Shown in pieces: positions 512-21,444 of a stretch of 64,000 nucleotides of DNA; position 1 is the first letter of the stretch, and every line of letters begins with the position of its first letter. The translations under genes were made by a program, and so were the position numbers. Below the pieces are notes generated by a model, which did no database searches, was not told the origin of the DNA, and worked only from the letters and a program-made list of their open reading frames with translations. Source of the stretch: Clostridia bacterium (GTDB lineage Bacteria; Bacillota; Clostridia; UMGS1883; UMGS1540); contig JAFSAU010000008.1 of NCBI GenBank assembly GCA_017442155.1, forward strand, positions 67,649-131,648. Reading direction: 5' to 3'.

Positions 512-3500
512 ATGAAGAAAGTATTTGCACTTTTGCTGGCAGGTATTATGACCCTTACGACTTTTACGGCTTTTGCAGAAGAGGAAGAAGCAAAGCCGAT
601 TATGATTGCCCCCACTGTGGAGCTGAGCGCAGATAGACAAACGGCCTACTCCATTAAGGAGAGACCCAAAAAATCGGCGGACTATAAGGTTGTAAACTTA
701 GAGGCTCCCACAAAAGTGGCCGAAGAAAATGGGAATGTTGAGCATGTACTGAACCCCGGCTTTGAATCTTCGTCCGACACTTTAAACCTGAATTGGGGAC
801 AGGGCGGTCTTGAAGGCGGAAAATGGGGAGAGTCCGGCGGCTTTTTTGAAAAGAAGGATGTGCATGGCGGCAGTATAGCGGCACATACAGTTGCTGCAGA
901 GGGAAAAAATGTGCATTTTCTTCAGAGCCTCGGCAATGTACTCGGTGGGCAGGAATATGAACTGACTGCGTGGGTAAAGAGGGTTTCCGGTTCACCGACA
1001 ATCTCTTTAACCTGCATTTATAGAGACCCTGAGACGCTTATGAGTATGGAATACACAAATCGTGTCAATTTGCAATTCGGGGATGCACCCGGAGGGGTCT
1101 GGACACGTAAAACCATACGTTTTACCCTTCCTGAAGATGTTATCTCCGTAACGCTGATGGCTCGACTTATTGGTGGCGGAGAAGCCTATTGGGATGATTT
1201 TTCATTAGTCGGACCCAGCCGCCCGGCAAAGAAAATGTCCATGCCGGAATATATTGCTCCGACTGCGGATTCCGTAAATCTTCTGAAGGATGCCAGCTTT
1301 GAAGAGGCGGACGATGTAAAGCATATAAAGCATGGAACGGAAGAGGAAGGCTATTGGTTTGACCGTGATGACGATGTACTCCGCGGCTGGTATACCTATT
1401 CTGACGAAGAAGCTCATACCGGTACAAAATCCCTGAAGCTGAACTGTGACAACAACGTTATGCCCTGGGTTGGCCAGGCCATCAAGGTAAAGCCTGAGAC
1501 CACATACCAGCTTTCTATGTGGGTGAAGATTCCGCGTGGCACACAGGAAACCTATCATTTCCAGGGCGACTGCTTTACCTATAGCTCGAAAGCGACAGAG
1601 CCGGACAATTATTTTAAGGACGGACGACGCTCGCTCCATGTGTATCCGGATTTTGATAATAACGAATGGCAACAGGTTGTAACTGTATTTTCAACGCCGA
1701 CTGAAGCTGCTTACTATCACATTATGATTCGTACGGGAGGAAACAGCGTATCTTATTTTGACGATGTAGAGCTGTATGAGCTTTCCGGTCTGAGTAAAAA
1801 AATCAGAACCTTTAGTCCTGATGATGTATTTTATTATTCTGATTATGAGGGGAATGGTTATGCAGACCTGAAAACCTATCTGTCCACATCCGACGAAGAG
1901 CAGAAGGTACGTTTCCGCTTCTATGATGGCGAAAAGGTTTTACTGGAAGAAATTGCAACTGTTTTACCGGATGGAACCCAGCGGTTCAATTATCCCTTAG
2001 AACTTTTATCTGAGAAAAAGAAGGAATACAGACTGGAAGCAATGATGCTCGGCCCGAATGGGGAAGAAACCGAGGATACACTTAGCAGATACATATATAA
2101 GTATGACCGTCCCACAAAGCTGAACGAAGCCATGCAGTTGATTACAAACGGTGACAAGGTGATTCAGAATTATGTGCTTGCACAGGGGACATCTCCTGAA
2201 ATTATGTATCGTATTTCTGAAGTGGGGGCTACGATAGGCCGTGGTATCGGTACGGTCAGAACGGACAGAACGGAAAGACTTGACGTGGCCTGGCAGGCAG
2301 GTATGTACGCCACGACAACCTTATTTAACCACGAAGATATCCGAGACCCGGAGGTATATGCACAGGTTGTAGATACCATAAACCGTGTAAAAGACCATCC
2401 GGCCCATATTGGCTGGTATTTATGGGAGGAACCGAAATTTGCCGGTGACGATATTGACCTGGATGAAAATCTTCGTATCGGCGCAAAGCTGATTCGTGAT
2501 TTAGACCCGGAGCACCCGCTGTTCGGCGTACTTTCCGAGCGTCTCTATTCCCAGGAATTTGGTAAATATTGCGATATTATCGACATGGACCTTTATCCGG
2601 CACAGATTTATGACAACCGTCGCGGCGAGAATGTCGCAAAGGGTATTGCCATGGGACTGGAGGAAAATGACTGGCAGATTCCCATCGGCATTATGACCCA
2701 GGCTTTTGAATGGTTCGATTTCCAACCGACCTGGAACGACCTTCGGAACTATGTCTATGCCTGTATGTTTGAAGGCGCAAACGGGTTTAGCTTCCATACC
2801 TTCGGTAAGGAAACCTCTACTGCGGAAAACGGAACCTGTGTAAAGCCCGGTGATGAAAGATGGAACGGAATGGTGAAGGCGGCAGAATGGGAATATGACT
2901 TTATCTTTGACCACTTTACCAAGATGAAGGCTCCGCTCTTCAATGAAGGAAGAACAGAAGATGTCTGGTGGAGAACGGTTGTGCGGGATGGCGAACTGTA
3001 TGCCATTGCCATCAACATGTGGGAAAATCAGAAATCTACGATTGATATTCCGCTGGTAGACCATACCGGCAAAATCAAGATAAACGGTGCAAAGGCAGAG
3101 CTTGTAGAAGGCGGCGATGCAAAGACGGTGACTATTACTGGTGACACCTTCCATATAGAGCTGGATAATTTCCAGGTTGCTGTTTATAAAATTACCCCGA
3201 ACGAAGCGGTTGACTTTTCTGATGTAAAGGTTACCCGGTTCCGTGATTTGCAGCACCATGTATGGGCAAGGGATGCTATTATTGAAATGGATGAAAAGGG
3301 CATCGTAAACGACCTTTCTTATATTGCCTACGCACCCGGCAGAAACGTTACTCGCGGTGACTTTGCCATGTTCTTAGTGCGTGCCTTAGGGCTTACCGGT
3401 GACGGAACGGAAGCGAACTTTGACGATGTCTCCGCAAGCCGTGAATACGCAAAGGATATTGCCATCGGAAAGGCGGCCGGCATCTTAAATGGCGTCGGAG

Positions 3501-3760
3501 ACAATAAGTTTAATCCGGATGTGGAAATTTCCCGTCAGGATATGATGACGATTATCAGCCGCGGCATGGCACTTTCCGGCGAAAGCGATTTGTCTGCATT
3601 TTCCGATAGCAGTCAGATTGCCGACTACGCACTTTCCCATGTGAAGGCCATGATTGCTTCCGGCCTTGTAAAAGGCAACGCGGACGGTACATTAAATCCG
3701 CTGGGACAAACCACCCGTGCGGAAGCGGCGGTTATCATGCAGCGTATTGTAAATCGATAA
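512..3760 (+). CDS. Secreted multidomain protein: signal peptide, 2x CBM4/9/22-like jelly-roll modules, Fn3-like sandwich, GH-A-like TIM-barrel putative glycoside hydrolase, 3x C-terminal SLH repeats (paralog A1)
   Basis: 1082-aa ORF with an RBS GGGAGG upstream and signal peptide MKKVFALLLAGIMTLTTFTAFA. CBM-type hallmarks are present: 'NPGFE...YELTAWVK...YWDDFSLVG' and 'FEEADD...YQLSMWVKIP...YFDDVELYE'. The central region has 'DHPAHIGWYLWEEP', 'IRDLDPEHP', 'DIIDMDLYP' and 'TQAFEW'. The last ~180 aa are three SLH repeats: '...NVTRGDFAMFLVRALGL', '...ISRQDMMTIISRGM', '...TTRAEAAVIMQRIV'. It is about 75% identical by eye to the protein at 17783-21037. Confidence 0.8.
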   Translation: MKKVFALLLAGIMTLTTFTAFAEEEEAKPIMIAPTVELSADRQTAYSIKERPKKSADYKVVNLEAPTKVAEENGNVEHVLNPGFESSSDTLNLNWGQGGLEGGKWGESGGFFEKKDVHGGSIAAHTVAAEGKNVHFLQSLGNVLGGQEYELTAWVKRVSGSPTISLTCIYRDPETLMSMEYTNRVNLQFGDAPGGVWTRKTIRFTLPEDVISVTLMARLIGGGEAYWDDFSLVGPSRPAKKMSMPEYIAPTADSVNLLKDASFEEADDVKHIKHGTEEEGYWFDRDDDVLRGWYTYSDEEAHTGTKSLKLNCDNNVMPWVGQAIKVKPETTYQLSMWVKIPRGTQETYHFQGDCFTYSSKATEPDNYFKDGRRSLHVYPDFDNNEWQQVVTVFSTPTEAAYYHIMIRTGGNSVSYFDDVELYELSGLSKKIRTFSPDDVFYYSDYEGNGYADLKTYLSTSDEEQKVRFRFYDGEKVLLEEIATVLPDGTQRFNYPLELLSEKKKEYRLEAMMLGPNGEETEDTLSRYIYKYDRPTKLNEAMQLITNGDKVIQNYVLAQGTSPEIMYRISEVGATIGRGIGTVRTDRTERLDVAWQAGMYATTTLFNHEDIRDPEVYAQVVDTINRVKDHPAHIGWYLWEEPKFAGDDIDLDENLRIGAKLIRDLDPEHPLFGVLSERLYSQEFGKYCDIIDMDLYPAQIYDNRRGENVAKGIAMGLEENDWQIPIGIMTQAFEWFDFQPTWNDLRNYVYACMFEGANGFSFHTFGKETSTAENGTCVKPGDERWNGMVKAAEWEYDFIFDHFTKMKAPLFNEGRTEDVWWRTVVRDGELYAIAINMWENQKSTIDIPLVDHTGKIKINGAKAELVEGGDAKTVTITGDTFHIELDNFQVAVYKITPNEAVDFSDVKVTRFRDLQHHVWARDAIIEMDEKGIVNDLSYIAYAPGRNVTRGDFAMFLVRALGLTGDGTEANFDDVSASREYAKDIAIGKAAGILNGVGDNKFNPDVEISRQDMMTIISRGMALSGESDLSAFSDSSQIADYALSHVKAMIASGLVKGNADGTLNPLGQTTRAEAAVIMQRIVNR

Positions 3761-3794
3761 ACCATACAGGACGTAGAAGAAAGGAAAAACGAAA

Positions 3795-6488
3795 ATGAGA
3801 CAAAAACTTTTTGTAATTCCCCTGATTTTTGCTATGCTTTTGGGCTGCATTTGCCCTGTGAGTGCGGCATTTACCGATACGGTGGGTCTGCCGTGCGAGG
3901 CGGCAGTAGAAAAGCTGTCGGCTTTAGGCATCGTGGAAGGTCGTGGAGATGGCGCATTTGCTCCGGATGAAACCCTGACAAGAGCAGAAATGGCTACGAT
4001 TGTACTCCGTCTTCTGAATCTGCAGGCCGGTGAGACAACCCAGATTTTTTCAGACGTGACAGCAGAGCACTGGGCCTTTGCCGCAGTGGGCGCAGCCTAC
4101 AAGGCAGGTATTGTCAACGGCACGAGCGAAACCACCTTTGCGCCCGATGCGGTGGTAACATATCCGCAGGCGGTGAAAATGCTTGTCTGTGCACTCGGCT
4201 ACGGCGTAAAGGCAGAGGCGGCCGGTGGCTATCCCACGGGATACCTGTCTATCGCCGCCCAGATTGGGTTGCTTGATGGCGTAGCGGCTATAGACGGTGC
4301 AATTACCCGTGGCACCATGGCAATGCTGGTTTCCAACGCTGTGGAAGTTGATATTTTAGAGCGTACCAGCTATGGCGATGACTACACCGTAGCAACAGAG
4401 GAGGGTGCGACTGTCCTTTCAGAATATCTCCATATCCAAAAGCACGAAGGAAAGATTACAGCAAACGGCATGATAACTTTGGAAGGCCGTTCTGTCCGTA
4501 AAGGTGAGGTTGCCATGGGCGAAGAAGTGTTTGCCGTGGGAGAAACGACGGCAGATTCTTTCCTGGGCAGAAAAGTCGTCTTGTATGCAAAAGAGGAAAA
4601 CGATGTAAAAACGGCGCTGTATATTGAAGCAAAGAAAAGCTCTGAGAGTCTTACGGTAGATGCATCGGATATTCTGCCGAAATCTACAATGACAAAGCTT
4701 TGCTATGAGGTGGAAAATAAGGAGCATACGGCAGAAATTGCGGCAGATGCCGTCTGGATATATAACGGCAGCAAAAAAACGGATATGACACCGGATAAAC
4801 TGATTTTTGCAACCGGTACAGTCGAACTGATTACCGCAAACGGCACGGTGGCCGACACGGTTATAATTCGTTCCTATCAGAATGTGATTGTAGATAGCAT
4901 ACGGGCAGAAGAACATAAGCTGATCTTTAAAGACAGAAGTATTCCGCTGACAAGTCTTGTACTGGATCCGACAGATTTCTCGTACCGTTTCAGCTTTAAA
5001 AATACAAACGGAACGGATGCGTCAGTAGGAGAATGTGCCGAGTGGGACGTTCTGTCTGTGGCAAGGAGTGAGGATGGCCGTGTAATTGAGGTAATTCGCA
5101 GCACGGAATTTACCGCAGGTAAAGTGGCAGAAATGAGCGCGGATATGCTTGTGATTGGTGAAAACAGCTACGAAATTGCGGCGAATGTAAAAACCAGTAC
5201 CGAACTGAAAAAGCCGGTGCTTGACATGGAAGCAAACTTCCGTCTCGACTTTACCGGCAAGGTCGCAGCGGTGGACAACGAAAACTACCGGAGCACCAAA
5301 TACGGTTGGCTGGTTGGCGGCCAGAAGCTGAAGGGCATCGACGGCAATACACAGCTTAAAATTTTCACCGAGGATGGCATGATGAAGCTGTTTACGGTTT
5401 CCGATAAATGTAAGGTAAATGGCAATCCCTCTGCGGATGTTTTAGGAGAAAGCGTCCTTTACAGCGGCACGGCCGTTATTGAACAGCTGCTCTTATTCCG
5501 TGCAACGGCAGAGGACGAAATTATAGAGATTGAAACAGCTGTGGAAAATTTAGATTTTACTTTGCAGGAGGCAGAACGTGTTGCGAAGTTCTCCAGAGAC
5601 TTTTACAGCGATAGAATCGGTATTATTGGCTATGAATCCAAAATCTTTGCAACAAGGTATATGATTCGTGAAAACAGTAAAATCTTTATCGTTGCGAATC
5701 AGTATACCGGCGACGATAAGCTCTATTCTATAAGAAACTGGGCTGATGTCGGCCATGTGGGTGCAGGCGGAACCTATAACGGTTTGTCTCTGTATGACAT
5801 AGGTGAAGACAATGTCGCCGCTGTTATGGTTTCCCGTGATACGGTCAGTGCGATTCCCACAGGGGACCCGGGCGTCATTACGCATATTACCCAGACGATT
5901 ACAGCAGACGGCGAACCGGTTATGAAGCTGACGCTGGAGAGAAAGAACGATACGGCTACCGTACTTGTAAAGGAAGACCTGGCAGTTTTAATGGAGAACG
6001 TGCTGTCTGACCCGGCAAAAGACCCGGCGGCAATAGAAGGCGTTTTGCCTGCAACTCTGAAGCCTTCCCAGTTGGAGCGTGGTGACGTGGTGCAGTACGA
6101 TATGTCCACGATAACCGGTGAAGCCACGGCGATGCGGGTGCTTTTAAGAAGCGGTTCCCGCCTGGTGGGTGAGCGAGCCAACAATGAGGGCGGCCGGAAT
6201 GCCACCGGCAATTTGGCGGCTGACTCTGATTATATCGGTAGCGTGTATGCTTATGCACAGACGGATAAAGTTTCCGAATACGGTGCCAGAATTTACGTGA
6301 CGCATGAAAAAAGAACAGGACCGGAAACCTACGAACGCATCCGTCACTTTAATGGTCCCAAAATCGTACTGTATGATTCCCGGCGGGATACATTTAAGAC
6401 AATTACGAGTGCAGAAATTTATGAAGGCGATTGGATTTTTGCTTATAAGTTGAACGCCTCGGAGCGGATTATTGTAGTATACAGATAG
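3795..6488 (+). CDS. Large cell-surface protein with signal peptide and N-terminal SLH triplet (S-layer-like; paralog B1), ~700-aa beta-rich C-terminal region of unknown function
   Basis: 897-aa ORF with RBS GAAAGGA. The N-terminus reads 'AFTDTVGLPCEAAVEKLSALGIVEGRGDGAFAPDETLTRAEMATIVLRLLNL', 'FSDVTAEHWAFAAVGAAYKAGIVNGTSETTFAPDAVVTYPQAVKMLVCALGY', then 'AEGGYPTGYLSIAAQIGLLDGV'. This matches the SLH consensus and the architecture of N-terminal-SLH S-layer proteins. It is a paralog of 60551-63259, with shared 'AEGGYPTGYLS' and a C-terminal '...I(V/I)VYR'. Confidence 0.7.
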   Translation: MRQKLFVIPLIFAMLLGCICPVSAAFTDTVGLPCEAAVEKLSALGIVEGRGDGAFAPDETLTRAEMATIVLRLLNLQAGETTQIFSDVTAEHWAFAAVGAAYKAGIVNGTSETTFAPDAVVTYPQAVKMLVCALGYGVKAEAAGGYPTGYLSIAAQIGLLDGVAAIDGAITRGTMAMLVSNAVEVDILERTSYGDDYTVATEEGATVLSEYLHIQKHEGKITANGMITLEGRSVRKGEVAMGEEVFAVGETTADSFLGRKVVLYAKEENDVKTALYIEAKKSSESLTVDASDILPKSTMTKLCYEVENKEHTAEIAADAVWIYNGSKKTDMTPDKLIFATGTVELITANGTVADTVIIRSYQNVIVDSIRAEEHKLIFKDRSIPLTSLVLDPTDFSYRFSFKNTNGTDASVGECAEWDVLSVARSEDGRVIEVIRSTEFTAGKVAEMSADMLVIGENSYEIAANVKTSTELKKPVLDMEANFRLDFTGKVAAVDNENYRSTKYGWLVGGQKLKGIDGNTQLKIFTEDGMMKLFTVSDKCKVNGNPSADVLGESVLYSGTAVIEQLLLFRATAEDEIIEIETAVENLDFTLQEAERVAKFSRDFYSDRIGIIGYESKIFATRYMIRENSKIFIVANQYTGDDKLYSIRNWADVGHVGAGGTYNGLSLYDIGEDNVAAVMVSRDTVSAIPTGDPGVITHITQTITADGEPVMKLTLERKNDTATVLVKEDLAVLMENVLSDPAKDPAAIEGVLPATLKPSQLERGDVVQYDMSTITGEATAMRVLLRSGSRLVGERANNEGGRNATGNLAADSDYIGSVYAYAQTDKVSEYGARIYVTHEKRTGPETYERIRHFNGPKIVLYDSRRDTFKTITSAEIYEGDWIFAYKLNASERIIVVYR

Positions 6489-6501
6489 AAGGAGTGCGTA
6501 G

Positions 6502-9500
6502 ATGAAATTTAGAAAAATCACAGCATTGCTTTGCTCTCTTCTGTTGTTAAACGGCACGGGGGCAGTAGCGGCAGAAACAGCTGCTCCCTATAGCCGGGAG
6601 GAAATCTCGGCACATACCCTTGTGGCCGGAGAAACAGCACAGGAGCTTTTGGTGAATGGCGGTTTCGAGATGTTAGAGGCAGAAACGAAGCTGCAGGTCT
6701 GGGCATTGTCAACCGGTCCGCTTGTGGAAGGCGGTAGCGAGAGGACAGAAGATGCGCACAGCGGAAGCTATGCCCTCCGTCTTTCAGCCGGTGAGGAGGT
6801 GCACCTTACCCAACAGGTGGCAATCAGCCGTCTGAACAGTGGAAAGATATGTGAGCTATCTCTCTGGGCAAAGCCGGAGAAAAAGGGTAGCAGTCTGACG
6901 CTTACGCAGACCTTTGGCATCCGTAATGAGCAGATACAGGATGAGGTGCTTGAAGATGTAAACATCATTTCATTTACAGACGCGGAGGCCGGAAAATGGA
7001 CACAGAAGATACTGCGCTTTACGATTCCCGAACGCATCTCATATACGGCAATAGATATTTCGGTGCAAAAGGACGAAGCGGTGCTTATCGACGATGTATC
7101 CCTTCTTCTGGAGGGGGCACCGCCAAAGGTGGAAAAGCCCACCAAAAAGGAACCGGTTTTAGAAGACTTTGAAATGGTAAAGAACGGCGACTTTGAACAA
7201 GGTACACTTAACTGGGGCGTGGAGCCCGGCCAGTGGAATGATTTTATCAGTATTGTACCCGGCGGCGCGACCGGCAACTGTGTAAAAATCTTCAAAGAAC
7301 CGGAAAATAGTGGAAAAAACCCACAGCTTCTACAGCATATTTCCGGCTTTGAGGAAGGTGCGGAATATCAGATGCATTTTCGGTTAAAATCGCCGGGCGT
7401 TGACAAGCTGGAATCTATATCCTACGGCTTTCGCTGGGGTGTAAACGGCGTGCGCATGGGACATGACAAAACGGGTAACATGGTACTTCTGCAAAATGAT
7501 AACTGGATTGACGTGTATCTGGACAGTGTTTGTCCACCCGGGGCAAACACCTGCATGATTGACTTCCGGCACTTTGCACCGGTCGGTTATTACATGATTG
7601 ACGATGTAAGTGTTTATATGACGAAAAGAGCGCCTTATGCTGAGGTGGAAACGGATGAGATATTCTATTACACCGAATGGAAGAAGGGCGAGGTGACCGT
7701 TCGCGACAGAACAAAGAACGGTGCGCTGAAAAACGGACGTATTGTGCTGGAAATCCGTGACGGCGAAACGGCTGTATTTACGAGCGAAGGCAGTATGACC
7801 GGCGAAGTGAAGAAACTGGAATTCCCTGTGAGTGTTCTGTCAGAAAAAGGAAAGGAATACACGGCCCATACAGCGGTGTATAACGAAACGGGTTCTCTTT
7901 TGGAGGAATACGACAGTGCAATTTACCGCTACGACAGACCTACTTACTTAGGTGCCGACGGTGTGTTCAGAAAGCCGGACCGAAACGGCGTGATGCGAGA
8001 ATATAATGTTGTCATCGGTAACGGCGTAACGAATCCGAGAATCAGTATTGTCGCCCCCTGCGGTGTTACAGTTGTCCAGCTTGTGGGCGGGGCATCCCTG
8101 CCACTGAAGGAACGGTTGGATATGGTCGAAAAGGAAGGCCTTTTAGCGCAGATTGTTCTTTATAGCGGAAAAAAGAGCGGCGGACACCCGGAAATGTTGC
8201 CACATACAATTGATAAGGTCATGGCAGTAAAGGATCATCCTGCTTTGTTTGGTTATAAAATTCAGGATGAACCCATGCAGAAGGGAAATTCGGATGCGGA
8301 GCTGGCACTGGCATACAAGACAATTCGTGACCTCGACCCCAACCATCCGATTTACACGGTAGACTCCGGTGAAGCAAGTTACGAGAGGCTGGGTAAGTTC
8401 TGCGACCTTATGGATATTGATGTATACCCCGGAAAGGGAGCGGATCGCGCCACACTGCTGGGTGAAAAAATTGAGGCGGCTGTTAAAGCGGTCAAGGGTC
8501 GCAAGCCGGTAGGGCTCCTGCAGCAGGCTTTTGAACTTGACGGTACGTTCCCCACAGCCGATGAATTTCGTCACTATGCCTATCAGGCACTGTTATCAGG
8601 TGCATCTTCTTTTGGGTATCATTCCTTCGGGGAATCGACCACACCACTGAGTCCCGAGCATTCCTCGTGGCCGGGGCTTGTGAAGATGGCCGAGTGGGAA
8701 CAAGGATTTATGTTTGATAGCCTTGTAAAGACGAAGAATCCGATGCTGAATGAGGATAAAACAGATGAAGTATGGTGGCGCACCTACGTGCTGGACGGCA
8801 AAATTTATGCCATTGTCTTAAACCGACAGCTGGAGGAAAATACAGCAACGGTGACCCTTACGGGGGTGAACGGCGGCTATGGGGCAGAGGGGTATACCGT
8901 AAAGCGGATTGCAGGCGGTGAAGAAGAAACCGTTGCCGTAAACGGCACCACCTTTACGACAAAGCTTATACCCCAGGCAGCATATCTCTATGAGATAACG
9001 CCGAACACCCCCGTGGATTTCAGCACGCTTCCCACAATGAAATTCCGCGATTTGACAGGATATAATTGGGCACAAAACGCAATTTCGTCCATGGAAAATG
9101 CAGGCGTGGTTACGGGTACAACAGACTATCTGTTTTCGCCCGGCGAAAAAATTACCCGAGGTGATTTTGCGTATTTCCTGATAACCGCCTTGGGACTTAC
9201 GGGAGAGGAGACTACATCCTTTTCGGATGTTCCGTCAGATGCCTATTATGCTAAGGCGATTGCCGCAGGGAAGGCAGTCGGTATTCTAGAGGGTGTCGGA
9301 GACAATCTTTTCGACCCGCATCGGGAAATTTCACGACAGGATATTATGACGATTACGGCCCGCGGTGCAAAGTTGGTAAAAGCACTTGCAGAAAGTGATA
9401 CCGGAGTGCTGGATACCTTTACGGATGCGGGACAGATTGCAGATTATGCACGTCAGAGCGTGGCAGATATGGTAAATGCAGGCCTTATTCTTGGCAACGG

Positions 9501-9591: not shown

Positions 9592-9602
9592 AAGGGGGAA
9601 AT

Positions 9603-12600: not shown

Positions 12601-12716
12601 GTGCTAATATCGTAAAAGGCAATGCGGACGGTACAATTAACCCCCTTGGCAATACAACGAGAGCTGAGGCGGCGGTCATAGCGAACAGAATGAGTCAGTG
12701 GAAGAAGGATCCATGA
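9603..12716 (+). CDS. Secreted CBM4/9-like x2 + GH-A-like TIM barrel + C-terminal 3x SLH protein (paralog A3)
   Basis: 1037-aa ORF with RBS AAGGGGGA and a signal peptide. It shares the motif set 'IYRYDRPTYLGADGVFRKPDRNG', 'DHPALFGYKVQDEP', 'IRDLDPHHPIY', 'DIMDIDHYP', 'LQQGFEI' and 'AVWWRTYV'. Three SLH repeats sit at the C-terminus. It is a tandem paralog of 6502-9591. Confidence 0.8.
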   Translation: MKLTRLCTLFCAFLMLCSTEIPAQAASYSFTEISAHTLVDKVNAQELLVNGDFSTSESDTKPLGWGINPGTFGAGETAEHIRGNASCVKLNYPGTGYASLSQTVVLKDADGKKCQFSARIKGEPSEQDVRVRISFWVSQNGTVVEHSDVINVFFADINTNTWTQKIIAFTLPENIQRITIRAQLHSDLAMYVDDMSLRMEGLAEADAEEKKPVLEDYEMLVNGDFSEASEDGLTVTGWRPEPGKGGTFDGRGAVLENDGDAQGNYAKVLTGETLPQLRQTVTGLMPTAEYRLTFKYKNPTANAVSFSCQMQYRKGTADIELDGTKNMMAYSSQTWQNGFFDFECPEEADGCLVSFRNLSAAGELYIDDASLYMTRKPYLALVETDERFYYTEWKTGFVTVEDRGNGESLAGGKAVFTVLDGNTAVLSPREKTLTDEKTVFEFSTAQALSEKGKEYTSEVKIYDADGKLVETQCHPIYRYDRPTYLGADGVFRKPDRNGGMIEKNISIGNNVPFTLIDNTGDEISDLGITVVQMGTDEAKRPLLERMDAVEAAGLHVLISLYNGKKSGGHPDMLENTVQTVNAVKDHPALFGYKVQDEPIQKMNTEDELATAYKLIRDLDPHHPIYLDDSGEGSYKRMARVCDIMDIDHYPSTGAYRASVIGEKIEAGVAAVKARKPVLLLQQGFEIGGEMPSANEFRHYAYQTMFSGGSAVGYHSFGGEPGHLAPGLDEWDGLCKFADWELTFLFDATVNRKYPMLSEEKTDAVWWRTYVKDGKIYAAILNRKVAEENVADVVLSDFDGTISADGFMAKRIAGGTEETITETGNVFRKNLEGMAAYLYEITPKNTMDFSGLKTTKYRDLTGYGWAYNAILTMEEAGVVNDKTAVSFAPGENITRGDFASFLIRALGLTADSTENFADVPADAPYAKEIATGKKLGVLNGIGDNRFNPEGEITRQDLMAIAARGMRVCRELNEGEEEMLQGYADAGLIAEYAKLDVAAMVRANIVKGNADGTINPLGNTTRAEAAVIANRMSQWKKDP

Positions 12717-12776
12717 AGGGCATTCGGCAGTGATACGGCATTTTATGCCGCACAGCTCACTGCTGAGGAACGAGCG

Positions 12777-13286
12777 GTGTACTACGATATGCTGATGGCA
12801 GAGACCGGCGGTACGTATGACGGCGCGGTGTGGCAATCGACACGGATAGAGAATGGTTTGACGTATACGCTGATTGTCAACGGAGGCCGTACTGCGGTAG
12901 AGAGAGCAGCGGCGGGGACATACGCAAAAGAGCTGGTGATTGAAAACGGAAGCAGCGTTTTTGATAACGCCGGTGGGGGCTTTATAGCTTCGCTCCCTCC
13001 GCACAGCAGTCTCTTTTTCACGACGGGTGATGCACTTTTACCCGGCCTTTACGTCGGGAACACCGCAAAAGCAACTTTTGAAAACGGAGCCGTATTCCGA
13101 GCAGCAGGTGAGACCCGGATTGGGGCAATGTACCAAAAATATGGTACAATGTGGGAGCTCGACTGTCTGTATGCAGATGGCGAAAATGTAACGGCAGACA
13201 AAGGGATTTGCAAATTCAGGGCTTTTTCCTGGGATGCAGCACTTTCGCCGCAGAAGAGTGCAGCTACGGTAATCCAAAAGCCGTAA
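12777..13286 (+). CDS. Uncertain ORF (169 aa, GTG start), no signal peptide and no recognisable domain; in the same frame as the upstream gene across its TGA stop
   Basis: The frame is open from 12717 to 13286 and is the same frame as 9603-12716, separated only by TGA at 12714-12716. A weak GAGGAA lies 10 nt before the GTG. Base composition is coding-like, but there is no supporting similarity. Confidence 0.25.
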   Translation: MYYDMLMAETGGTYDGAVWQSTRIENGLTYTLIVNGGRTAVERAAAGTYAKELVIENGSSVFDNAGGGFIASLPPHSSLFFTTGDALLPGLYVGNTAKATFENGAVFRAAGETRIGAMYQKYGTMWELDCLYADGENVTADKGICKFRAFSWDAALSPQKSAATVIQKP

Positions 13287-13332
13287 CCGGCACACCGGAA
13301 AGAAAACAAAAATTTAGGAGGATTGAACGAGT

Positions 13333-14916: not shown

Positions 14917-14936
14917 ACAATTGGAGGTAAGACAAA

Positions 14937-15719
14937 ATGAAATTTCGCGATAAGTTATGGCTCTGGGGCCAGACAGAAGGCTCACATCATATAAACGACG
15001 CCTTCAAGCTGCCGGGACAGAGCCGCATGACACCTTTGGAGGGTGCATACTATTTTGGCATCCATAACATGTGCCGTGTTGTTATGATGGGGCTTCCGAA
15101 GCTCCCCTTCGACCAGGACCAGATGGTGCTGGATACGATGGAAAACGTGGTCTGGTCCATTATCGGTGACGGAACAAGCGGAAAAGCCGATTATACAGAC
15201 GAGATTATCCGTCTTTCGCACAAATATCCGAACATTACAGGTGTAATTATGGATGATATTATGCGTTTGCCGAGAATGGAAATCTTTTCGCCGGAGTCGT
15301 ACCGGGTTTTCAAGGAAAAGCTGAAGGATGCGGCACGTCCGATGCCTCTGTGGTGTACCATCTATACCCATCAGCTGACAGAAGAGAGAATTCCTTACAT
15401 TGCGGAATGTGATGTCCTAACGCTCTGGACCTGGCATCAGGAGGATTTACCGGCTATCCGTGAAAACCTGGCAAAGCTTCGCACGCTTTCCGGTGACCAG
15501 CCGATTTACGGCGGTCTGTATATGTGGGATTACGGCAATAAAAAGGAAATCAGCGATGATTTAATGCAGCTGCAGCTGGATACCTATTACGAACTTCTTA
15601 AAAATAAGGAGATTGCCGGCGTGATTGTCTGCTCCAACTGCTGTGCCGATGTGGGGCTGAAGACCTCGGATATGGTGCGGGATTGGATTCGCGAGCATGG
15701 CGATGAAGAAATAGAATAG
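14937..15719 (+). CDS. Hypothetical cytoplasmic protein (260 aa), no signal peptide
   Basis: ORF with RBS GGAGGT. It sits between genes for exported proteins and is co-directional with them. No recognisable motifs. Confidence 0.6.
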   Translation: MKFRDKLWLWGQTEGSHHINDAFKLPGQSRMTPLEGAYYFGIHNMCRVVMMGLPKLPFDQDQMVLDTMENVVWSIIGDGTSGKADYTDEIIRLSHKYPNITGVIMDDIMRLPRMEIFSPESYRVFKEKLKDAARPMPLWCTIYTHQLTEERIPYIAECDVLTLWTWHQEDLPAIRENLAKLRTLSGDQPIYGGLYMWDYGNKKEISDDLMQLQLDTYYELLKNKEIAGVIVCSNCCADVGLKTSDMVRDWIREHGDEEIE

Positions 15720-15801
15720 TTTTTTCGGCCGTGCCGGAGGGTATTTGGAGGGAGCCTTCCGGCATGGCTGAAACTGTAATGCAGCAAAAAGGAGAAATCA
15801 C

Positions 15802-17751
15802 ATGGAAAAACTGAAACGAGGGATTCATCTTGATTTCCACACCTTGCCCGGTATTTATAACTTCGGCGAATCGTTTGATGCCGAGGTGTTTGCTGAGCGG
15901 CTGAAAAACGCAAACGTTGAAATTATCAACGCATTTTTTCAGTGTAATATCGGGCATGTGTACTATCCGACGAAGATAGGCGTGCCTTACCCGGATATGA
16001 AGGGTGATATGTTTGGGGACATCGTTCGTGAATGCCGGAAAAGGGGCATTCGCGTTGTAGGATATACGAATACAGCTATAAATCATGTCCAGGCGATTTT
16101 GCATCCCGAATGGCAGAGAGTAGATAGCGAGGGACGGGTGCTGCAGCATGAGAGGACAATAACCAGCAGTTTTTTCCGTACCATGTGCTATAACAGCGAT
16201 GGATACCGCAAGTATTTGTCTTCCCTCATCCGCGAGGTGATAGAGCTATATGATATAGACGGTATTTTCGCTGACTGTATGACACCGAACCCCTTCTGCC
16301 ATTGCCCAAAATGCACACGGGAGATGATAGAAGAGGGGCTGGATGTCACAAATGAAGACCATGTGCGGTATTTTGCACATAAGAAGTTTTTTGAATTTGC
16401 CCATTTGATTCGCAGTTCCGTTCCGGAGGGGAAGCTGGTGCAGCAAACCGGCGTTCCCTTCGACTGGGACGGGGCACAGGACGTCAGCACCCATGGCGAG
16501 CTGGAATGTCTCCCGGCAGGAAGATGGGGCTACGACTTTTTCGGGCCGCAGGTTGCTTATATGCGGAAATGCCGTGACCAAATTTTGTATATGTCCGGCC
16601 GTTTTCATTATAACTGGGGCGATTTCGGTGGCTACAAATCAAAGGCCTCTATGGAAAATGATTGCTATGATGCGCTTTCACAGGGCGTGCAGGTTTCGAT
16701 TGGCGACCATATGCATCCGGCAGGGAATCTGGATAAAAAATTGTATGAAGATATAGGAGAAATCTACAGCCGTGTAAAGGCGTACGAGGCATGGTCGGAT
16801 GATGCTGTATACCGTTCTGAAATCGGCATTCTCAATGATAAAACTGCGGTTACCAAAGACGAAATGCGGGGCGGTCTCGGGCGAAACCCCTCAGTACGTG
16901 GCGCAGCAAGAATGCTGGCAGAGCTGAAGTATGGCTTCGATATTTTAAATGAGGACATGGACTTTGCGCCGTATAAACTGCTGATTTTGCCGGATGACCT
17001 GCACATGTCAGAAAACCTGCAAAAAAAGATTTCTGCCTTTTTGAAAAATGGTGGTAAGGTGATTGCTTCCGGTAGTGCAGGCTTAAATAAGGAGAAAACG
17101 GATTTTGCATGTAAGGAATGGAATTTCATCCGGTTTGATGGTATAGACGAGCATAATGTGTCATTCTTTACCGATGCCGTCCGTACAAGACCGACGGCGA
17201 TGTACCGGCCGGGGATTCGCATGACCTCCGGGTACAAAACGGCCGACTATATTAAACCATATTTTAACCGCCATTTTGACGGTATTCATGGGTATCGGTA
17301 CGTTCCACCGGAAAAGGCAACGGGACAGGCGGCGATTGCAGAAAAGGAGGGCATATGCCATATTTGCTTCCGCATTTTTGAAAGCTATTACTTTGAGGCG
17401 TATGCGGTGCATAAGCAGCTTTTGAATGAAATCATCCGGCGTTTTCTCCCTGTACCGCTTTTAAAGACAGAAGGGATACCGTCCACGGCAAGAGTAACGC
17501 TGACGGGTACGGAAGCGTATGAGCTTCTCCACGTCAAGACAAGTTTCCCGGAGAAACGAGGACATGCAATGAGCGTGATTGAGGAGCATGTAAAGCTTCC
17601 GGCAGGGGAATGCATCTCAGTAAAGGGTGCATATAAGGCGGTATACCGGCTGCCGGAAAAAACGCCGATTGCATTTGTAGCAGATGGAGCATATACCAAG
17701 GTGCATCTGCCTGAAATTGACGGCTATGCAATGTTTCTCTTGGAAAAATAG
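15802..17751 (+). CDS. Putative cytoplasmic glycoside-hydrolase-like protein (GHL6-type N-terminal TIM-like region plus beta-galactosidase-trimerisation (GH42 M)-like domain)
   Basis: 649-aa ORF with RBS AAGGAG and no signal peptide. The central segment 'ELKYGFDILNEDMDFAPYKLLILPDDLHMSENLQKKISAFLKNGGKVIASGSAG' matches the GH42 trimerisation/class-I glutamine-amidotransferase-like pattern (YKLvvlP...L..yV..GG..v). The N-terminus 'GIHLDFHT...' is consistent with the GHL6 family. The assignment rests on motif recall only. Confidence 0.5.
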   Translation: MEKLKRGIHLDFHTLPGIYNFGESFDAEVFAERLKNANVEIINAFFQCNIGHVYYPTKIGVPYPDMKGDMFGDIVRECRKRGIRVVGYTNTAINHVQAILHPEWQRVDSEGRVLQHERTITSSFFRTMCYNSDGYRKYLSSLIREVIELYDIDGIFADCMTPNPFCHCPKCTREMIEEGLDVTNEDHVRYFAHKKFFEFAHLIRSSVPEGKLVQQTGVPFDWDGAQDVSTHGELECLPAGRWGYDFFGPQVAYMRKCRDQILYMSGRFHYNWGDFGGYKSKASMENDCYDALSQGVQVSIGDHMHPAGNLDKKLYEDIGEIYSRVKAYEAWSDDAVYRSEIGILNDKTAVTKDEMRGGLGRNPSVRGAARMLAELKYGFDILNEDMDFAPYKLLILPDDLHMSENLQKKISAFLKNGGKVIASGSAGLNKEKTDFACKEWNFIRFDGIDEHNVSFFTDAVRTRPTAMYRPGIRMTSGYKTADYIKPYFNRHFDGIHGYRYVPPEKATGQAAIAEKEGICHICFRIFESYYFEAYAVHKQLLNEIIRRFLPVPLLKTEGIPSTARVTLTGTEAYELLHVKTSFPEKRGHAMSVIEEHVKLPAGECISVKGAYKAVYRLPEKTPIAFVADGAYTKVHLPEIDGYAMFLLEK

Positions 17752-17782
17752 AGTATTGTAATTAAAAAAAGGAGATTTTTAC

Positions 17783-20700
17783 ATGAAAAAGATAATAGCA
17801 ACCCTTTTGGCAGGCTTTATGTTGTGTTCCGGTGCCGCAGTTCTATCCGCCCCCGCAGAGGAAAGGGAGTACCCCTTCAAAATTTCCCCCACGGTGGAAA
17901 TGCGGGAGGATGGGGAAGCCTATTCAATCAAGGAGCGTCCGATAAAAGAAGGCGATTATAAAATCCAAACCTTAACAAAGCATACAAAGATAGCGGGGAA
18001 AAATGGAGATGAAAATATTTTCCCGGACGGCGGCTTTGAAAATGCAAAAGAAACCTTTCTTACCGGGTGGAGCGGAAACGGCGTTGAAGGCGGCGTGATC
18101 GGTGAAACCAATGCCTTTATTGTGGATGATACCGCAGAAGGCAAAAAGGCACTCAAGCTATCCGGACCGGAAGGCAAAAATGTACACGGTGTACAGGTGT
18201 TTACGAACATGATACCGGGTGAGGAATATGAATTATCCGCTTGGTGTAAACGGGTTTCCGGCACAGCCAATATTTCTTTAGGCTTTGGTTATGTTGAACC
18301 GGAGACAGACATGAGTCTGGAGTACGGCAATCGAGTGAACTTAAGCTTTGCCGATGCCCCGGCCAATACCTGGACACAGAAAATCATTCAGTTTACGATG
18401 CCGGAGGATGCCAATAAAGTAACTTTGATGGCACGTCTTATGGGCGGCGGTGAAATCTATTATGACGGTATTACGATTCTCGGCCCTCAGAAGCCGGTAG
18501 AGGTTGCAACAATGCCGGAGTATGTCAAACCTAGCGAAGGTACGGAAAACGTCTTTAAAAACGGGGGCTTCGAAGAAGGAACGGAAGTCACGCATATTAA
18601 GCACGGAACGGAATATGAAGGCATTTGGTTTGACCGTGACGACGATGTTATGAAAGGGCACTTTACCTATTCGGATGCGGAAGCACATTCGGGCAAGCAG
18701 TCTATTCATTTAAAGGGCGATAATTTGAATATGCCCTGGCTGGGACAGGTCATAAAGGTTGAGCCGGAAACCACCTATCAGATTTCAGCTTGGGTAAAGG
18801 TGGTAGATCCAAGAAATGTTAATTTCCGTTTCCAGGGTGACGGGTATAAAAATTCCCCGGAGCAGACAGCAGAAAACTATATCTCGGATGCACGAACCAC
18901 AGTCCATCCCGGTATAGATCCGAAAAACCCTGCGTGGCAGCAGATTGTCGGCAACTTTACAACCCATCAGGATGCGGAGTATTATTGCTTTATGCTACGT
19001 GGCGGTGACAAGATACAGGATATGTATTTTGACGATATAGAGCTTTATCCGCTCGCAGGTCTCAGCAAAAAGCTTCGTAGCTTTATTCCGGATGATGTGT
19101 TCTACTATTCTGATTATGAAGGAAACGGGTATGCTGATATAACTACCTATAAAAGTACAACCGACGAAAATCAGAAGGTACGTTTTCGCTTTTATGATGA
19201 AGAAAAGGTTGTAAAGGAAGAAATTGTTACGCTTCCCGAGGAAGGGAAATATCGTTTCCATTACCCCTTGGAGCTTTTGGCTGAAAAGAAAAAGGAATAT
19301 AGGCTTGAAGCTATGATGTTAGGCGCAAATGGGGAAGAAACAGACGACTTTATGGAACGTTTCATTTATAAATATGATCGCCCCACCATGCTGAATGAAG
19401 CATTGGAGCTTATGACGTCTGACGGAACCAAAATTGAAAATTACATACTGGCGCAGGGTACAACGCCGGCGGTTATGTGGCAAATTCCCGAAGTTGGGGC
19501 TACAATCGGCCGTGCAATCGGTACTTGGCGAACGGACAGAATCGAACGGTTGGACGTAGCTTACGAAGCCGGAATGTATGCTACTGTTACCTTATTTAAT
19601 CATGAGGATATTCGTGATCCGGAGGTGTATGCCGATGTGGTAAATACAATTAATATGGTAAAAGACCATCCGGCACTTATCGGCTGGTATTTATGGGAAG
19701 AACCGAAATTTGCAGAGTCTACCTATGATCTGCAGGAAAATATCCGTATTGGTGCGAAGCTGATTCGTGACCTGGATCCCAAGCATCCTCTCTTCGGTGT
19801 TGTTTCTCAGCCGCTCCATGCAGGAGAACTTGGTAAATTTTGCGACATCTTAGACATGGATATTTATCCCGCACAAACATATGACGGACAACGTGGCATG
19901 CGAATTGCAGAAGCAATTTCTATGGGTCTGGAAAGTAATGATTGGCAAAAGGTAGTGTCTATCATGACCCAGGCCTTTGAGTGGTTTGAATTCCAGCCTA
20001 CATGGAATGATCTCAGAAACTATATTTATATGGCCATGTTTGAGGGCGCGGGTGGATTCAGCTTCCATACTTTCGACAAAGTAGGCGGTATTGCCGAAAA
20101 TGGTACGGGGGTTCAGCCCGGGGACGAAAGATGGAATGGTATGGTGAAGGCATCAGAGTGGGAATATGATTTTATCTTTGACCACTTTGTTAATCAAAAA
20201 GCCCCGCTCTTTAATGAGGGCCGTACAGAGGATGTCTGGTGGAGAACAGTTGTGCGGGACGGAGAACTGTATGTGATTGCTGTAAACACCTGGGAAAACA
20301 AGGAAAGTACGGTAAATATTCCGCTTGTCGACTATACTGGCAAAATTAAAATAAACGGTGCAAAAGCAGAACTCATAGAGGGCGGCGAAGCAAAAACAGT
20401 AAATATTTCCGGTGATACCTTCCCTGTAGAACTCGAGAAATTCCAATCAGCCGTCTTTAAGATTACACCGAACGAAGCTGTTGATTTTTCCGGTGTTAAG
20501 GGCACACGATTCCGTGACCTGCAGCACCATGTATGGGCAAGAGAGGCCATAATTGAAATGGATGATAAAGGCATTGTAAATGACCTTTCGGCAGTTGCTT
20601 TTGCACCAGGTAGAAACATAACCCGTGGCGACTTTGCAATGTTCCTGGTGCGTGCTTTGGGGCTTACCGGAAGCGGTGCCAAAGTAAGCTTTGACGATGT

Positions 20701-21037
20701 TTATACAAATAGAGAGTATGCAGAGGCCATTGCCATAGGCAAAGAGGCAGGTATCTTGAACGGGGTAGGGGATAATAAGTTTAATCCGGATGCTGAAATT
20801 TCCCGTCAGGATATGATGACGATTATCAGCCGTGGTATGGCACTTTCGGGTGACAGCGATTTGTCGGCATTTTCTGACAGTAGCGAGATTGCCGATTACG
20901 CACTTTCTCATGTGAAGGCAATGATTGCTTCCGGTCTCATAAAGGGAAATGCCGATGGTACCTTAAATCCCCGCGGCAATACAACCCGCGCAGAGGCGGC
21001 CGTGATTATGCAGCGGATTATAAACCGGTATATGTAA
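17783..21037 (+). CDS. Secreted CBM4/9-like x2 + GH-A-like TIM barrel + C-terminal 3x SLH protein (paralog A4; sister of 512-3760)
   Basis: 1084-aa ORF with RBS AAGGAG and signal peptide MKKIIATLLAGFMLCSGAAVLSA. It is near-collinear with 512-3760: 'FIYKYDRPTMLNEA', 'DHPALIGWYLWEEP', 'IRDLDPKHPLFGV', 'DILDMDIYP', 'TQAFEWFEFQPTWNDLRNY'. Three C-terminal SLH repeats are present. Confidence 0.8.
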   Translation: MKKIIATLLAGFMLCSGAAVLSAPAEEREYPFKISPTVEMREDGEAYSIKERPIKEGDYKIQTLTKHTKIAGKNGDENIFPDGGFENAKETFLTGWSGNGVEGGVIGETNAFIVDDTAEGKKALKLSGPEGKNVHGVQVFTNMIPGEEYELSAWCKRVSGTANISLGFGYVEPETDMSLEYGNRVNLSFADAPANTWTQKIIQFTMPEDANKVTLMARLMGGGEIYYDGITILGPQKPVEVATMPEYVKPSEGTENVFKNGGFEEGTEVTHIKHGTEYEGIWFDRDDDVMKGHFTYSDAEAHSGKQSIHLKGDNLNMPWLGQVIKVEPETTYQISAWVKVVDPRNVNFRFQGDGYKNSPEQTAENYISDARTTVHPGIDPKNPAWQQIVGNFTTHQDAEYYCFMLRGGDKIQDMYFDDIELYPLAGLSKKLRSFIPDDVFYYSDYEGNGYADITTYKSTTDENQKVRFRFYDEEKVVKEEIVTLPEEGKYRFHYPLELLAEKKKEYRLEAMMLGANGEETDDFMERFIYKYDRPTMLNEALELMTSDGTKIENYILAQGTTPAVMWQIPEVGATIGRAIGTWRTDRIERLDVAYEAGMYATVTLFNHEDIRDPEVYADVVNTINMVKDHPALIGWYLWEEPKFAESTYDLQENIRIGAKLIRDLDPKHPLFGVVSQPLHAGELGKFCDILDMDIYPAQTYDGQRGMRIAEAISMGLESNDWQKVVSIMTQAFEWFEFQPTWNDLRNYIYMAMFEGAGGFSFHTFDKVGGIAENGTGVQPGDERWNGMVKASEWEYDFIFDHFVNQKAPLFNEGRTEDVWWRTVVRDGELYVIAVNTWENKESTVNIPLVDYTGKIKINGAKAELIEGGEAKTVNISGDTFPVELEKFQSAVFKITPNEAVDFSGVKGTRFRDLQHHVWAREAIIEMDDKGIVNDLSAVAFAPGRNITRGDFAMFLVRALGLTGSGAKVSFDDVYTNREYAEAIAIGKEAGILNGVGDNKFNPDAEISRQDMMTIISRGMALSGDSDLSAFSDSSEIADYALSHVKAMIASGLIKGNADGTLNPRGNTTRAEAAVIMQRIINRYM

Positions 21038-21251: not shown

Positions 21252-21252
21252 A

Positions 21253-21368: not shown

Positions 21369-21444
<76 letters not shown>

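Follow-up and report, generated by a model that had tools for sequence, protein, structure and literature searches.

A paralogous family of SLH-anchored, CBM-bearing proteins with a rebuilt clan GH-A-like barrel in an uncultured Clostridia bacterium

The stretch of DNA analysed here, below called the window, comprises 64,000 nucleotides (nt) of contig JAFSAU010000008.1 (positions 67,649 to 131,648) of the Clostridia bacterium assembly GCA_017442155.1, which represents an uncultured, Oscillospiraceae-like gut bacterium. Positions 512-21037 of its plus strand are occupied by nine co-directional, back-to-back open reading frames (ORFs), four of which encode the large secreted proteins A1 to A4 (Table 1). 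Each of them carries S-layer homology (SLH) repeats, carbohydrate-binding modules (CBMs) and a (beta/alpha)8 barrel, which, as judged from profile comparisons, is a remote GH2/GH158-like fold of glycoside hydrolase (GH) clan GH-A and belongs to a large uncharacterised metagenomic family. What is new is this cross-phylum family derived from clan GH-A, whose catalytic centre has been rebuilt, the amplification of its genes into arrays, a second TIM-barrel family represented by the cytoplasmic protein c260, and the pairing of a second type of SLH protein (B1, B2) with a private C-terminal module. The literature that was searched contains no description of the A-barrel family, the arrays, the c260 family, the pairing of B proteins and C-terminal module, or the locus.

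The best overall explanation of the locus, to which we assign a probability of about 0.5, is SLH-displayed capture and cutting of a glycan with non-classical catalysis, followed by finishing in the cytoplasm. SLH domains bind a secondary cell-wall polymer, and A1 to A4 and B1 would be held on the wall by their SLH triplets. Each A protein would expose two CBM_4_9 jelly-rolls before a GH2-like sandwich-barrel-sandwich unit, and would bind and cut the glycan at the cell surface. Its barrel descends from clan GH-A glycosidases, with the nucleophile and the C2 side of the -1 subsite rebuilt. The most likely mechanism would be neighbouring-group participation of the C2 substituent of the substrate (2-acetamido or 2-OH), which the new Asp would polarise. 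The fast-diverging CBMs would give each paralog a different target, and the fragments would presumably be imported by a transporter encoded elsewhere. They could then be processed by the GH151 protein G649, c260 and a pair of Gfo/Idh/MocA and xylose-isomerase-like proteins.

The A proteins and their barrel family

Proteins A1 to A4 share one layout, consisting of a typical signal peptide, two CBM_4_9 modules, a beta-sandwich, the (beta/alpha)8 barrel, a second beta-sandwich and three SLH repeats. In A1, the CBM_4_9-like modules span residues 72-233 and 248-423, the first sandwich residues 431-530, the barrel about 531-805, the second sandwich 806-900 and the SLH repeats 905-1080. A preliminary description of this DNA, made from the sequence alone, had already listed signal peptide, CBM pair, barrel and SLH triplet, all of which were recovered, the last three by Pfam, a local hidden Markov model (HMM) and fold comparison; the sandwich behind the barrel had been missed. 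The sandwich in front of it had been called Fn3-like, and it is a beta-sandwich indeed, but an Fn3 identity finds no support in Pfam. The SLH family PF00395 is matched with 87-101 bits in A1-A5 and 80 bits in B1 (cutoff 20.8), and the 167-aa alignment to the SLH domain of Bacillus anthracis Sap (PDB 3pyw) spans all three repeats of ~55 aa. For CBM_4_9 (PF02018, jelly-rolls of the CBM4/9/16/22 type in CAZy; cutoff 25.9), the scores are 36.8 in A1, 39.1 in A2, a borderline 26.4 in A3, 78.6 in A4, 48.5 in A5 and 43.2 in the partner protein C527. The second CBM of each of A1-A5 was detected with the local HMM (E 1e-16 to 1e-32), which finds a single CBM in A6. The A proteins are publicly annotated only as 'S-layer homology domain-containing protein'.

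A4 is the closest paralog of A1 (67% identity), and A2 and A3 are 48% identical; all other pairs among A1-A5 show 29-33% identity over the full length, and A6 is 26-35% identical to the other A proteins over its shorter shared region. Resolved by module, the identity of A1 and A4 amounts to 49-51% in the CBMs, 73% in the barrel and 86% in the SLH repeats. Since the CBMs diverge faster than barrel and SLH repeats, ligand recognition appears to be the property under diversification.

A Pfam search of the barrels, proposed in the preliminary description as a check, was run and placed them in no established family; neither a Pfam nor an NCBIfam model reaches its threshold, and the fold found is the (beta/alpha)8 (TIM) barrel that characterises clan GH-A. 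A profile built from 39 barrel sequences matches GH158 (PDB 9oro) with E 1e-13 and GH2 beta-glucuronidases with E 3e-12 to 1e-7, and also GH5 and GH42. The GH158 match is confined to beta2-beta5 (profile positions 33-158 of 281) and leaves the nucleophile region unaligned. Identity to GH2, GH158 and GH42 is 17% or lower, and the alignments end short of beta7. In Pfam, weak matches to Glyco_hydro_2_C were obtained for 24 of the 39 family members; among the window proteins, A5 comes closest to the cutoff of 21 with 20.9 bits, and the remaining ones have no match. An assignment to GH2, GH158, GH42, GH5 or Apiosidase was rejected, because the matches are incomplete and stay below threshold and because the catalytic residues are not the same. 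Sequence and fold rank likewise give no support for GH20, GH84, GH123, DUF4838, GH163 or GH185, and neither sequence nor fold places the barrel in the new beta-N-acetylgalactosaminidase groups (PMC11087588, PMC10570127).

When 1.84 billion cluster representatives were searched exhaustively with a profile, 5,985 clusters passed E<=1e-3; a limit of 1e-10 left 2,500 of them and one of 1e-30 left 430. The majority are proteins of about 1,000 aa. A word-indexed search of 5.8 billion proteins with residues 431-900 of A1 returned two fragments only, which reflects the sensitivity limit of the index and not rarity. Among 45 family members sampled, 39 carry CBM_4_9 and 24 carry SLH repeats. The close relatives in species-representative genomes are all found in metagenome-assembled genomes (MAGs) of uncultured Clostridia, the sources of which, where titled, are goat and sheep gut. 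Tandem arrays of 3-7 A-family genes are common in them. The goat-rectum MAG RGIG3022 (loci L005-L013) harbours at least 26 A-family copies, up to 7 of them in a row on contig JAFSCR010000019, with genes of the beta-lactamase/penicillin-binding protein (PBP) fold interspersed among them. Gene order is kept in Oscillospiraceae SIG447 (loci L001 and L003; 60-96% protein identity) and in Clostridia SUG1177 (locus L002; about 60-86%). Distant relatives occur in Kiritimatiellae, Victivallales/Lentisphaerae, Thermoguttaceae, Armatimonadota and Bacteroidales.

XynA of Thermoanaerobacterium and Lic16A of Clostridium thermocellum are known SLH-anchored multimodular GHs of Gram-positive bacteria. Further examples are ChiW of Paenibacillus (PDB 5gzu) and Cel5I of Ruminiclostridium cellulolyticum (PMC4976890). 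The A proteins share with such enzymes the signal peptide, the tandem CBMs, a (beta/alpha)8 module and the SLH triplet, and like them need no cohesin or dockerin. They differ in that the barrel lies outside the GH families described in Pfam and the literature and lacks the classical nucleophile, that the genes form tandem arrays of paralogs (six in the window, at least 26 in the related MAG), and that they share an operon with B proteins and non-anchored proteins bearing the private C-terminal module. A resemblance to cellulosomes lies in the many carbohydrate-directed modules on a Gram-positive surface, encoded in large clusters; unlike there, no scaffoldin is present and the A proteins have their own SLH anchor. 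Neither cohesin nor dockerin was detected with Pfam in either locus or in 45 family representatives. The earlier proposal of an alternative to the cellulosome without cohesin and dockerin is thus correct in its negative part, but the idea of non-cellulosomal display is not new, because SLH-anchored CBM-GH fusions are well known.

A rebuilt active site

All residue counts given below refer to 156 family sequences and to the numbering of A1. In profile alignments, the family motif M-D-E-P falls on G-N-E-S and A-N-E-P, D-x-Y on N-x-Y and G-x-N-V-V-Q on G-G-N-S-I-R. At beta7, 'KPIIQSEYG' of beta-glucuronidase (GUS) and 'QPFMLMEQ'/'KPFVLMES' of GH42 align with 'KPVYxLLQAF' of the family. As in GH2, GH158 and GH42 (by fold also GH164, GH140 and GH5), the barrel follows an Ig-like beta-sandwich and retains the acid/base Glu of beta4 (156/156), the Tyr of beta6 (Y695, 156/156) and the Trp behind beta8 (131/156). 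Unlike in those families, the residue preceding the acid/base Glu is Asp in 153 sequences and Glu in A1 and A4; it is never Asn, so that an NEP-type motif is absent. The equivalent of the beta2 Arg is Gln in 111/156, and the Asn/His of beta6 is replaced by Asp in 153/156. The position of the canonical beta7 nucleophile is taken by Leu (79), Gln (18) or Asn (13), and the residue next to it is Gln in 125 and Glu in 11 sequences. An acid at 728-730 occurs in 15/156 only, and 87/156 have none at 728-733; a conserved acid is absent from beta7. In the six window paralogs, the site is Leu, Gln or Thr, followed by Gln. GH2 enzymes possess an invariant loop-7 Glu, an invariant NE motif and a conserved beta2 Arg (PMC12243196), none of which is present in the consensus of the A-barrel family.

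The consensus is borne by A2 (Q-D589-E590-P at nt 8266-8271, D640-x-Y642, beta7 LLQQAFE at nt 8515-8535), A3 (Q-D596-E597-P at nt 11388-11393, beta7 LLQQGFE), A5 (M-D572-E573-P at nt 56988-56993, beta7 DLLQAFD) and A6 (F-D392-E393-P). A1 (W-E639-E640-P at nt 2426-2431, beta7 IMTQAFE at nt 2690-2710) and A4 (E639-E640 at nt 19697-19702, beta7 IMTQAFE) form a divergent pair, in which Glu-Glu is accompanied by a retained beta2 Arg and by changes of near-invariant residues (Y605F, Y658A, K723I and G541M).

With the beta7 nucleophile missing and Asp-Glu or Glu-Glu in place of Asn-Glu, catalysis would have to be either non-classical or absent. The preliminary description had proposed S-layer-displayed polysaccharide processing; surface display, CBMs and barrel hold, but a working hydrolase had been assumed although the canonical nucleophile is lacking. 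Function rather than decay is argued for by the strong conservation of the remodelled site: although the sequences come from different phyla and share 25-35% overall identity, the Asp-Glu pair, D688, D693, Y695 and W784 vary little or not at all. The signature DEP, DxYP and QAF is also borne by the remote family members of Kiritimatiellae, Victivallales, Thermoguttaceae and Bacteroidales.

Contact with the C2 substituent of the sugar in subsite -1 is made in clan GH-A by the Asn of the NEP motif. The exchange of this Asn for Asp, together with the loss of the nucleophile and its Arg, would be the pattern expected for neighbouring-group catalysis, which is exemplified by GH20/GH123 (Asp-Glu) and GH84 (Asp-Asp) on 2-acetamido sugars and by GH99-type participation of the 2-OH group. 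For both the A barrels and c260, GH20, GH123 and GH84 are proposed as a functional analogy, since they are TIM barrels that do without a protein nucleophile, carry two neighbouring carboxylates where beta4 ends and have a conserved Tyr. We know of no case of catalysis via the C2 group of the substrate in clan GH-A. As a best guess, weakly supported, the substrate may be fucosylated and possibly contain N-acetylhexosamine (HexNAc), as a host or microbial glycan.

Several points weigh against glycan cutting by such a mechanism. The A barrels may be inactive, and they resemble none of GH20, GH84, GH123, GH163 and GH185 in sequence or fold rank. The locus contains no HexNAc catabolic genes of the nagA/nagB type, and the divergent operon upstream of it is inositol-like; hints of HexNAc are weak and consist of GH109_C neighbours at 2 loci and one ROK protein. 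CBM_4_9 classically binds xylan or beta-glucan, and no transporter is linked to the locus. About 10% of the family have an acid at or beside the canonical nucleophile position. In addition, all six window paralogs possess a Glu or Asp three residues past the conserved Gln (E733 in A1).

The last point touches on a different proposal, in which the A barrels would be retaining glycosidases with a moved nucleophile that degrade plant or other fucose-bearing polysaccharides. Candidates for the nucleophile are the beta6 Asp (D693 in A1), the beta4 Asp (the layout of GH27, GH29 and GH151) or, in the window clade, the acid at 733. We consider this proposal doubtful, the odds being clearly against it. 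D688, D693 and Y695 are indeed invariant or nearly so, the acid at 733 is common to the six window paralogs, CBM_4_9 modules are typical of hemicellulases, and both the GH151 fucosidase in the operon and the ruminant gut habitat would agree with it. Yet position 733 is acidic in only 55/156 sequences (35%) and thus cannot be the catalytic residue of the family, for which reason E733 was dismissed as a family-wide nucleophile; as a displaced nucleophile of the window clade only, it is a possibility. The model of A1 has a predicted local distance difference test (pLDDT) score below 50 right at the E733 region (model residues 299-305). E640 is homologous to the acid/base of clan GH-A, so a nucleophile at beta4 would need a full change of role, and to our knowledge no clan GH-A family uses a beta6 nucleophile. 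Some paralogs of RGIG3022 read 'LME-QAF' and thereby have Glu at the ancestral nucleophile position.

If catalysis is absent, the barrels would be pseudo-enzymes. The A proteins would then serve as SLH-anchored arrays of lectins or adhesins, which catch glycans or particles at the surface and leave hydrolysis to other enzymes. The loss of canonical nucleophile and supporting Arg speaks for this, as does the missing linked transporter; extreme expansion of paralogs (at least 26 copies in RGIG3022) and binding modules that diverge fastest are both typical of adhesin and receptor families. The conservation of the Asp-Glu pair, D688, D693, Y695 and W784, however, argues for a preserved active site, and dedicated cytoplasmic glycosidases are encoded in the same operon. 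We regard pseudo-enzymes as unlikely.

For the preferred explanation, in which the barrels cut glycans by a non-classical route, the sequence data make the A barrel a good candidate for a new glycosidase family. Surface-anchored CBM-enzyme fusions are the means by which many Gram-positive gut bacteria attack glycans. If the A-barrel family is active, one or two glycosidase families would be gained, together with a mechanism that is new for a classical scaffold. It would also become clear what a group of uncultured Clostridia of the ruminant gut, whose genomes carry up to about 26 copies, live on. If it is inactive, the family would represent a striking large-scale conversion of enzymes to lectins.

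Partner proteins and gene organisation

Protein B1 consists of a signal peptide, an N-terminal SLH triplet and a body of ~700 aa; its name at NCBI is 'S-layer homology domain-containing protein' and its match in the PDB is confined to the SLH part of Sap. For the bodies of B1 and B2, no family was found in Pfam (E<=1), NCBIfam or the PDB, and self-comparison revealed no internal repeats. The two proteins are 30% identical over their full length.

C527 is secreted and non-anchored, with one clear CBM_4_9, one weak CBM-like module and a C-terminal module of ~100 aa. This module carries the motif F/W-x-W-D/N...L-x-P and is shared with y483 and A6 of a second locus, such that the secreted SLH-less proteins of both loci all end in it. 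Outside the window, too, several family members without SLH repeats end in it (E 1e-16 to 3e-4 among 152 sequences). Its HMM additionally matches the C-terminal ~100 aa of s169, a protein without signal peptide or Pfam family that is 60% conserved in the MAG SIG447 and publicly annotated as a gene of 165-169 aa. An interpretation of s169 as a decayed A gene could not be established, the comparison of its N-terminus with the post-barrel sandwich being non-significant (E 0.1-1.4). Each of the two loci in the window encodes one B protein and two proteins with the C-terminal module. These sequence patterns hint that the B proteins and the C-terminal module may be a docking pair, which would then be a new type of cohesin/dockerin-like pairing. 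The combined claim that the A barrel and c260 found new GH families, that the former uses the C2 group of the substrate and that the B proteins are possibly docking partners is a tentative one, with the odds against it.

Protein c260 is predicted to be a cytoplasmic, compact (beta/alpha)8 barrel (model pLDDT 97) of minimal glycosidase-like build. Invariant in its family are D106-D107 at the end of beta4 as well as Y143, D159, W164, Y195 and D238. The family comprises 'hypothetical' proteins of ~260 aa without a Pfam model in Clostridia, and two matches are named as Omnitrophota and Brocadiaceae MAGs. It is a candidate for a new GH family in its own right.

The cytoplasmic protein G649 matches GHL6 (99.5 bits) and Glyco_hydro_42M in Pfam and is composed of a GHL6 barrel, a GH42M-like domain and a C-terminal sandwich. 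Residues 6-648 align with PDB entry 6TVK (E 5.3e-86), which is the GH151 enzyme ALfuk2 (PMC10154630). The three-domain layout is the same, and the equivalents of the nucleophile D154 and the acid/base E235, which in GH151 lie on beta4 and beta6, are conserved (FAD, GELE); the equivalent of His503 is unaligned, with a Tyr at that place. By homology, G649 is thus a GH151 alpha-L-fucosidase. GH151 enzymes cut aryl-fucosides and fucosyl disaccharides, not larger glycans (PMC10154630), and this restriction to small substrates fits a cytoplasmic clean-up role for G649. The preliminary description had held that neither catalytic family nor substrate could be assigned from sequence. This remains valid for the substrate and for the A barrel, which has no Pfam or NCBIfam family, but not for G649 (GH151) and c260 (TIM barrel).

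Pairs of Gfo/Idh/MocA and AP_endonuc_2 genes precede the A genes in both loci of the window and in the related loci L001, L002 and L016-L018. They resemble IolG/IolE, DgpA and levoglucosan-dehydrogenase types, all below the cutoffs. The copy cut by the window start matches PF01261 at profile positions 104-239 only; on the source contig, the full gene encodes 280 aa and is separated from A1 by 14 nt. Among 110 neighbouring ORFs in related MAGs, AraC regulators (7) are the most frequent, ahead of beta-lactamase-fold proteins (4), additional Gfo/Idh/MocA proteins (3) and GH109_C proteins (2), and no transporter is among their 25 commonest families. Among the proteins of both loci and the further window ORFs that were scanned, Pfam also detected no ABC, PTS or solute-binding-protein domain, which agrees with the earlier statement that the locus encodes neither a transporter nor a solute-binding protein. 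Like Gram-positive polysaccharide utilisation loci, the system combines extracellular glycan-binding or -cutting proteins, cytoplasmic glycosidases and, in the second locus, an AraC regulator. Unlike them, it lacks a linked transporter: none was found in the locus or elsewhere in the 64-kb window, nor among the families that most often adjoin A genes in related MAGs.

Instead of dietary or host glycans, the system could act on the envelope of the bacterium itself or on the walls of other bacteria, i.e. in remodelling of secondary cell-wall polymer, peptidoglycan or capsule or on necromass. SLH anchoring, the beta-lactamase/PBP-fold genes between A genes in RGIG3022, and the genes for an NlpC/P60 peptidase and a further SLH protein that follow shortly after the first locus are in line with a wall target, and the Asp-Glu pair would suit polymers containing GlcNAc, MurNAc or ManNAc. 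However, GH151, the CBM_4_9 arrays, AraC-type regulators and sugar-catabolic partners resemble nutrient acquisition, and dozens of paralogs would not be expected for housekeeping wall remodelling. A wall target is considered very unlikely, and surface capture and cutting of a glycan is retained as the preferred explanation.

The A1 to A4 block corresponds to the NCBI proteins MBQ7032462 to MBQ7032470. Coordinates and strand of the eight genes listed in the preliminary description are correct; the ninth ORF, s169, had been omitted, although it is conserved in a related MAG. The gaps between the genes measure 11-82 nt instead of the 12-60 bp given there, and a GGAGG/AGGAG-type (Shine-Dalgarno-like) ribosome-binding site is present at every gene start. 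Co-directionality, short gaps and ribosome-binding sites agree with the proposal of one long operon, but its extent had been underestimated. The source contig shows that the co-directional block reaches back ~3 kb beyond the window start. A 356-aa uncharacterised gene comes first and is followed by Gfo/Idh/MocA and AP_endonuc_2, so that A1 is the fourth gene and the whole unit comprises 12 genes and ~24 kb. We infer that these are transcribed as a single unit.

The AT-rich hairpin at 21208-21250 is likely to be a bidirectional terminator that closes the operon; a consensus scanner missed it because its stem contains few G-C pairs. As stated previously, no other convincing terminator precedes it: all terminator-like matches on the plus strand of the locus are intragenic, and their number (26) shows no excess over shuffled sequence (19.4 ± 4.6). 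An ORF of 119 aa at 21217-21576 is an artefact, being an antisense reading of tRNA-Trp and tRNA-Ala, and long antisense ORFs over the locus genes, which overlap plus-strand genes, were discarded for lack of support.

Upstream, a divergent gap of 288 bp (shared promoter region) separates the A operon from a minus-strand operon (positions 1-6677 of L052), which encodes IolB (above cutoff), a PfkB kinase, a class II ketose-bisphosphate aldolase and a XylB-like kinase, together with GlcD/Fer4-type oxidase subunits and an amidohydrolase. By its gene content, this operon looks like one for inositol-type catabolism. A HexNAc or fucose catabolic context was rejected for it, and it is of no help regarding the substrate.

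Table 1 Features of the two loci in the window
Feature	Position (nt)	Strand	Length	Remarks
AP_endonuc_2 gene, 3' part	36-497	+		Xylose-isomerase-like TIM barrel, cut by window start; operon gene 3
A1	512-3760	+	1082 aa	
B1	3795-6488	+	897 aa	
A2	6502-9591	+	1029 aa	
A3	9603-12716	+	1037 aa	
s169	12777-13286	+	169 aa	GTG start
Shared C-terminal module of s169	12980-13286	+	~100 aa	
C527	13333-14916	+	527 aa	
Shared C-terminal module of C527	14500-14916	+	~100 aa	
c260	14937-15719	+	260 aa	
G649	15802-17751	+	649 aa	
A4	17783-21037	+	1084 aa	
Terminator hairpin	21208-21250	+		AT-rich stem, then T-run (AAAGAGATGATTTT...AAAATCATCTCTTTTTT); read directly from sequence
tRNA-Trp(CCA) and tRNA-Ala(GGC)	21253-21444	-		Convergent, downstream boundary; ARAGORN and Rfam
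AraC-family regulator	50868-51632	-		Divergent from second locus; Pfam HTH_AraC, HTH_18, Cupin_2
AP_endonuc_2	51845-52633	+		Pfam; overlaps Gfo/Idh/MocA by 19 nt
Gfo/Idh/MocA	52615-53664	+		Pfam
y483	53713-55164	+	483 aa	Secreted, weakly CBM-like, C-terminal ~100-aa module
Shared C-terminal module of y483	54780-55164	+	~100 aa	
A5	55275-58301	+	1008 aa	Full A architecture with SLH triplet
A6	58317-60530	+	737 aa	CBM, beta-sandwich, barrel, beta-sandwich, C-terminal module in place of SLH
Shared C-terminal module of A6	60210-60530	+	~100 aa	
B2	60551-63259	+	902 aa	B1 paralog, N-terminal SLH and ~700-aa body

The second locus and further features of the window

A related locus with A5, A6 and B2 had been noted before and was confirmed at 51845-63259, with the correction that A6 has no SLH repeats and a single CBM. 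The nearest relatives of its Gfo/Idh/MocA protein are uncharacterised Gfo/Idh/MocA oxidoreductases; the C-glycoside 3-oxidase DgpA and inositol dehydrogenases are also among the matches. A weak match to IolE was obtained for the AP_endonuc_2 and Gfo/Idh/MocA pair, orthologues of which adjoin A genes in L016, L017 and L018.

Downstream of the first locus, positions 21580-23064 encode another secreted SLH protein of 494 aa without any other domain. Convergent with it is a gene for an SH3-NlpC/P60 cell-wall peptidase (23237-24001, minus strand), and the region is rich in wall-associated proteins.

Between ~30000 and 38000, the window contains an island of low GC content (0.35-0.39 versus about 0.48 elsewhere in the window), which may have been acquired horizontally. 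Its genes code for a GNAT-like acyltransferase, a 2-phosphosulfolactate-phosphatase-family protein, a ceramidase-like protein, an M20 peptidase, an FAD oxidoreductase, an AP_endonuc_2 protein and a GDPD phosphodiesterase.

The phosphoglucose-isomerase ORF at 42979-44436 is listed with a TTG start that overlaps ispF by ~100 nt, and its true start is probably located further downstream. The gatA gene (amidase subunit of the Glu-tRNA(Gln) amidotransferase, 47733-49180) is split into two overlapping ORFs. The break lies near 48343-48346 (...CTGATGCGTTTGCATCGTCACTGGATCAG...), where the addition of one G after ATG restores a conserved stretch of 12 residues. Because gatA is essential, the 1-nt deletion probably reflects an error of sequencing or assembly and not a true pseudogene.

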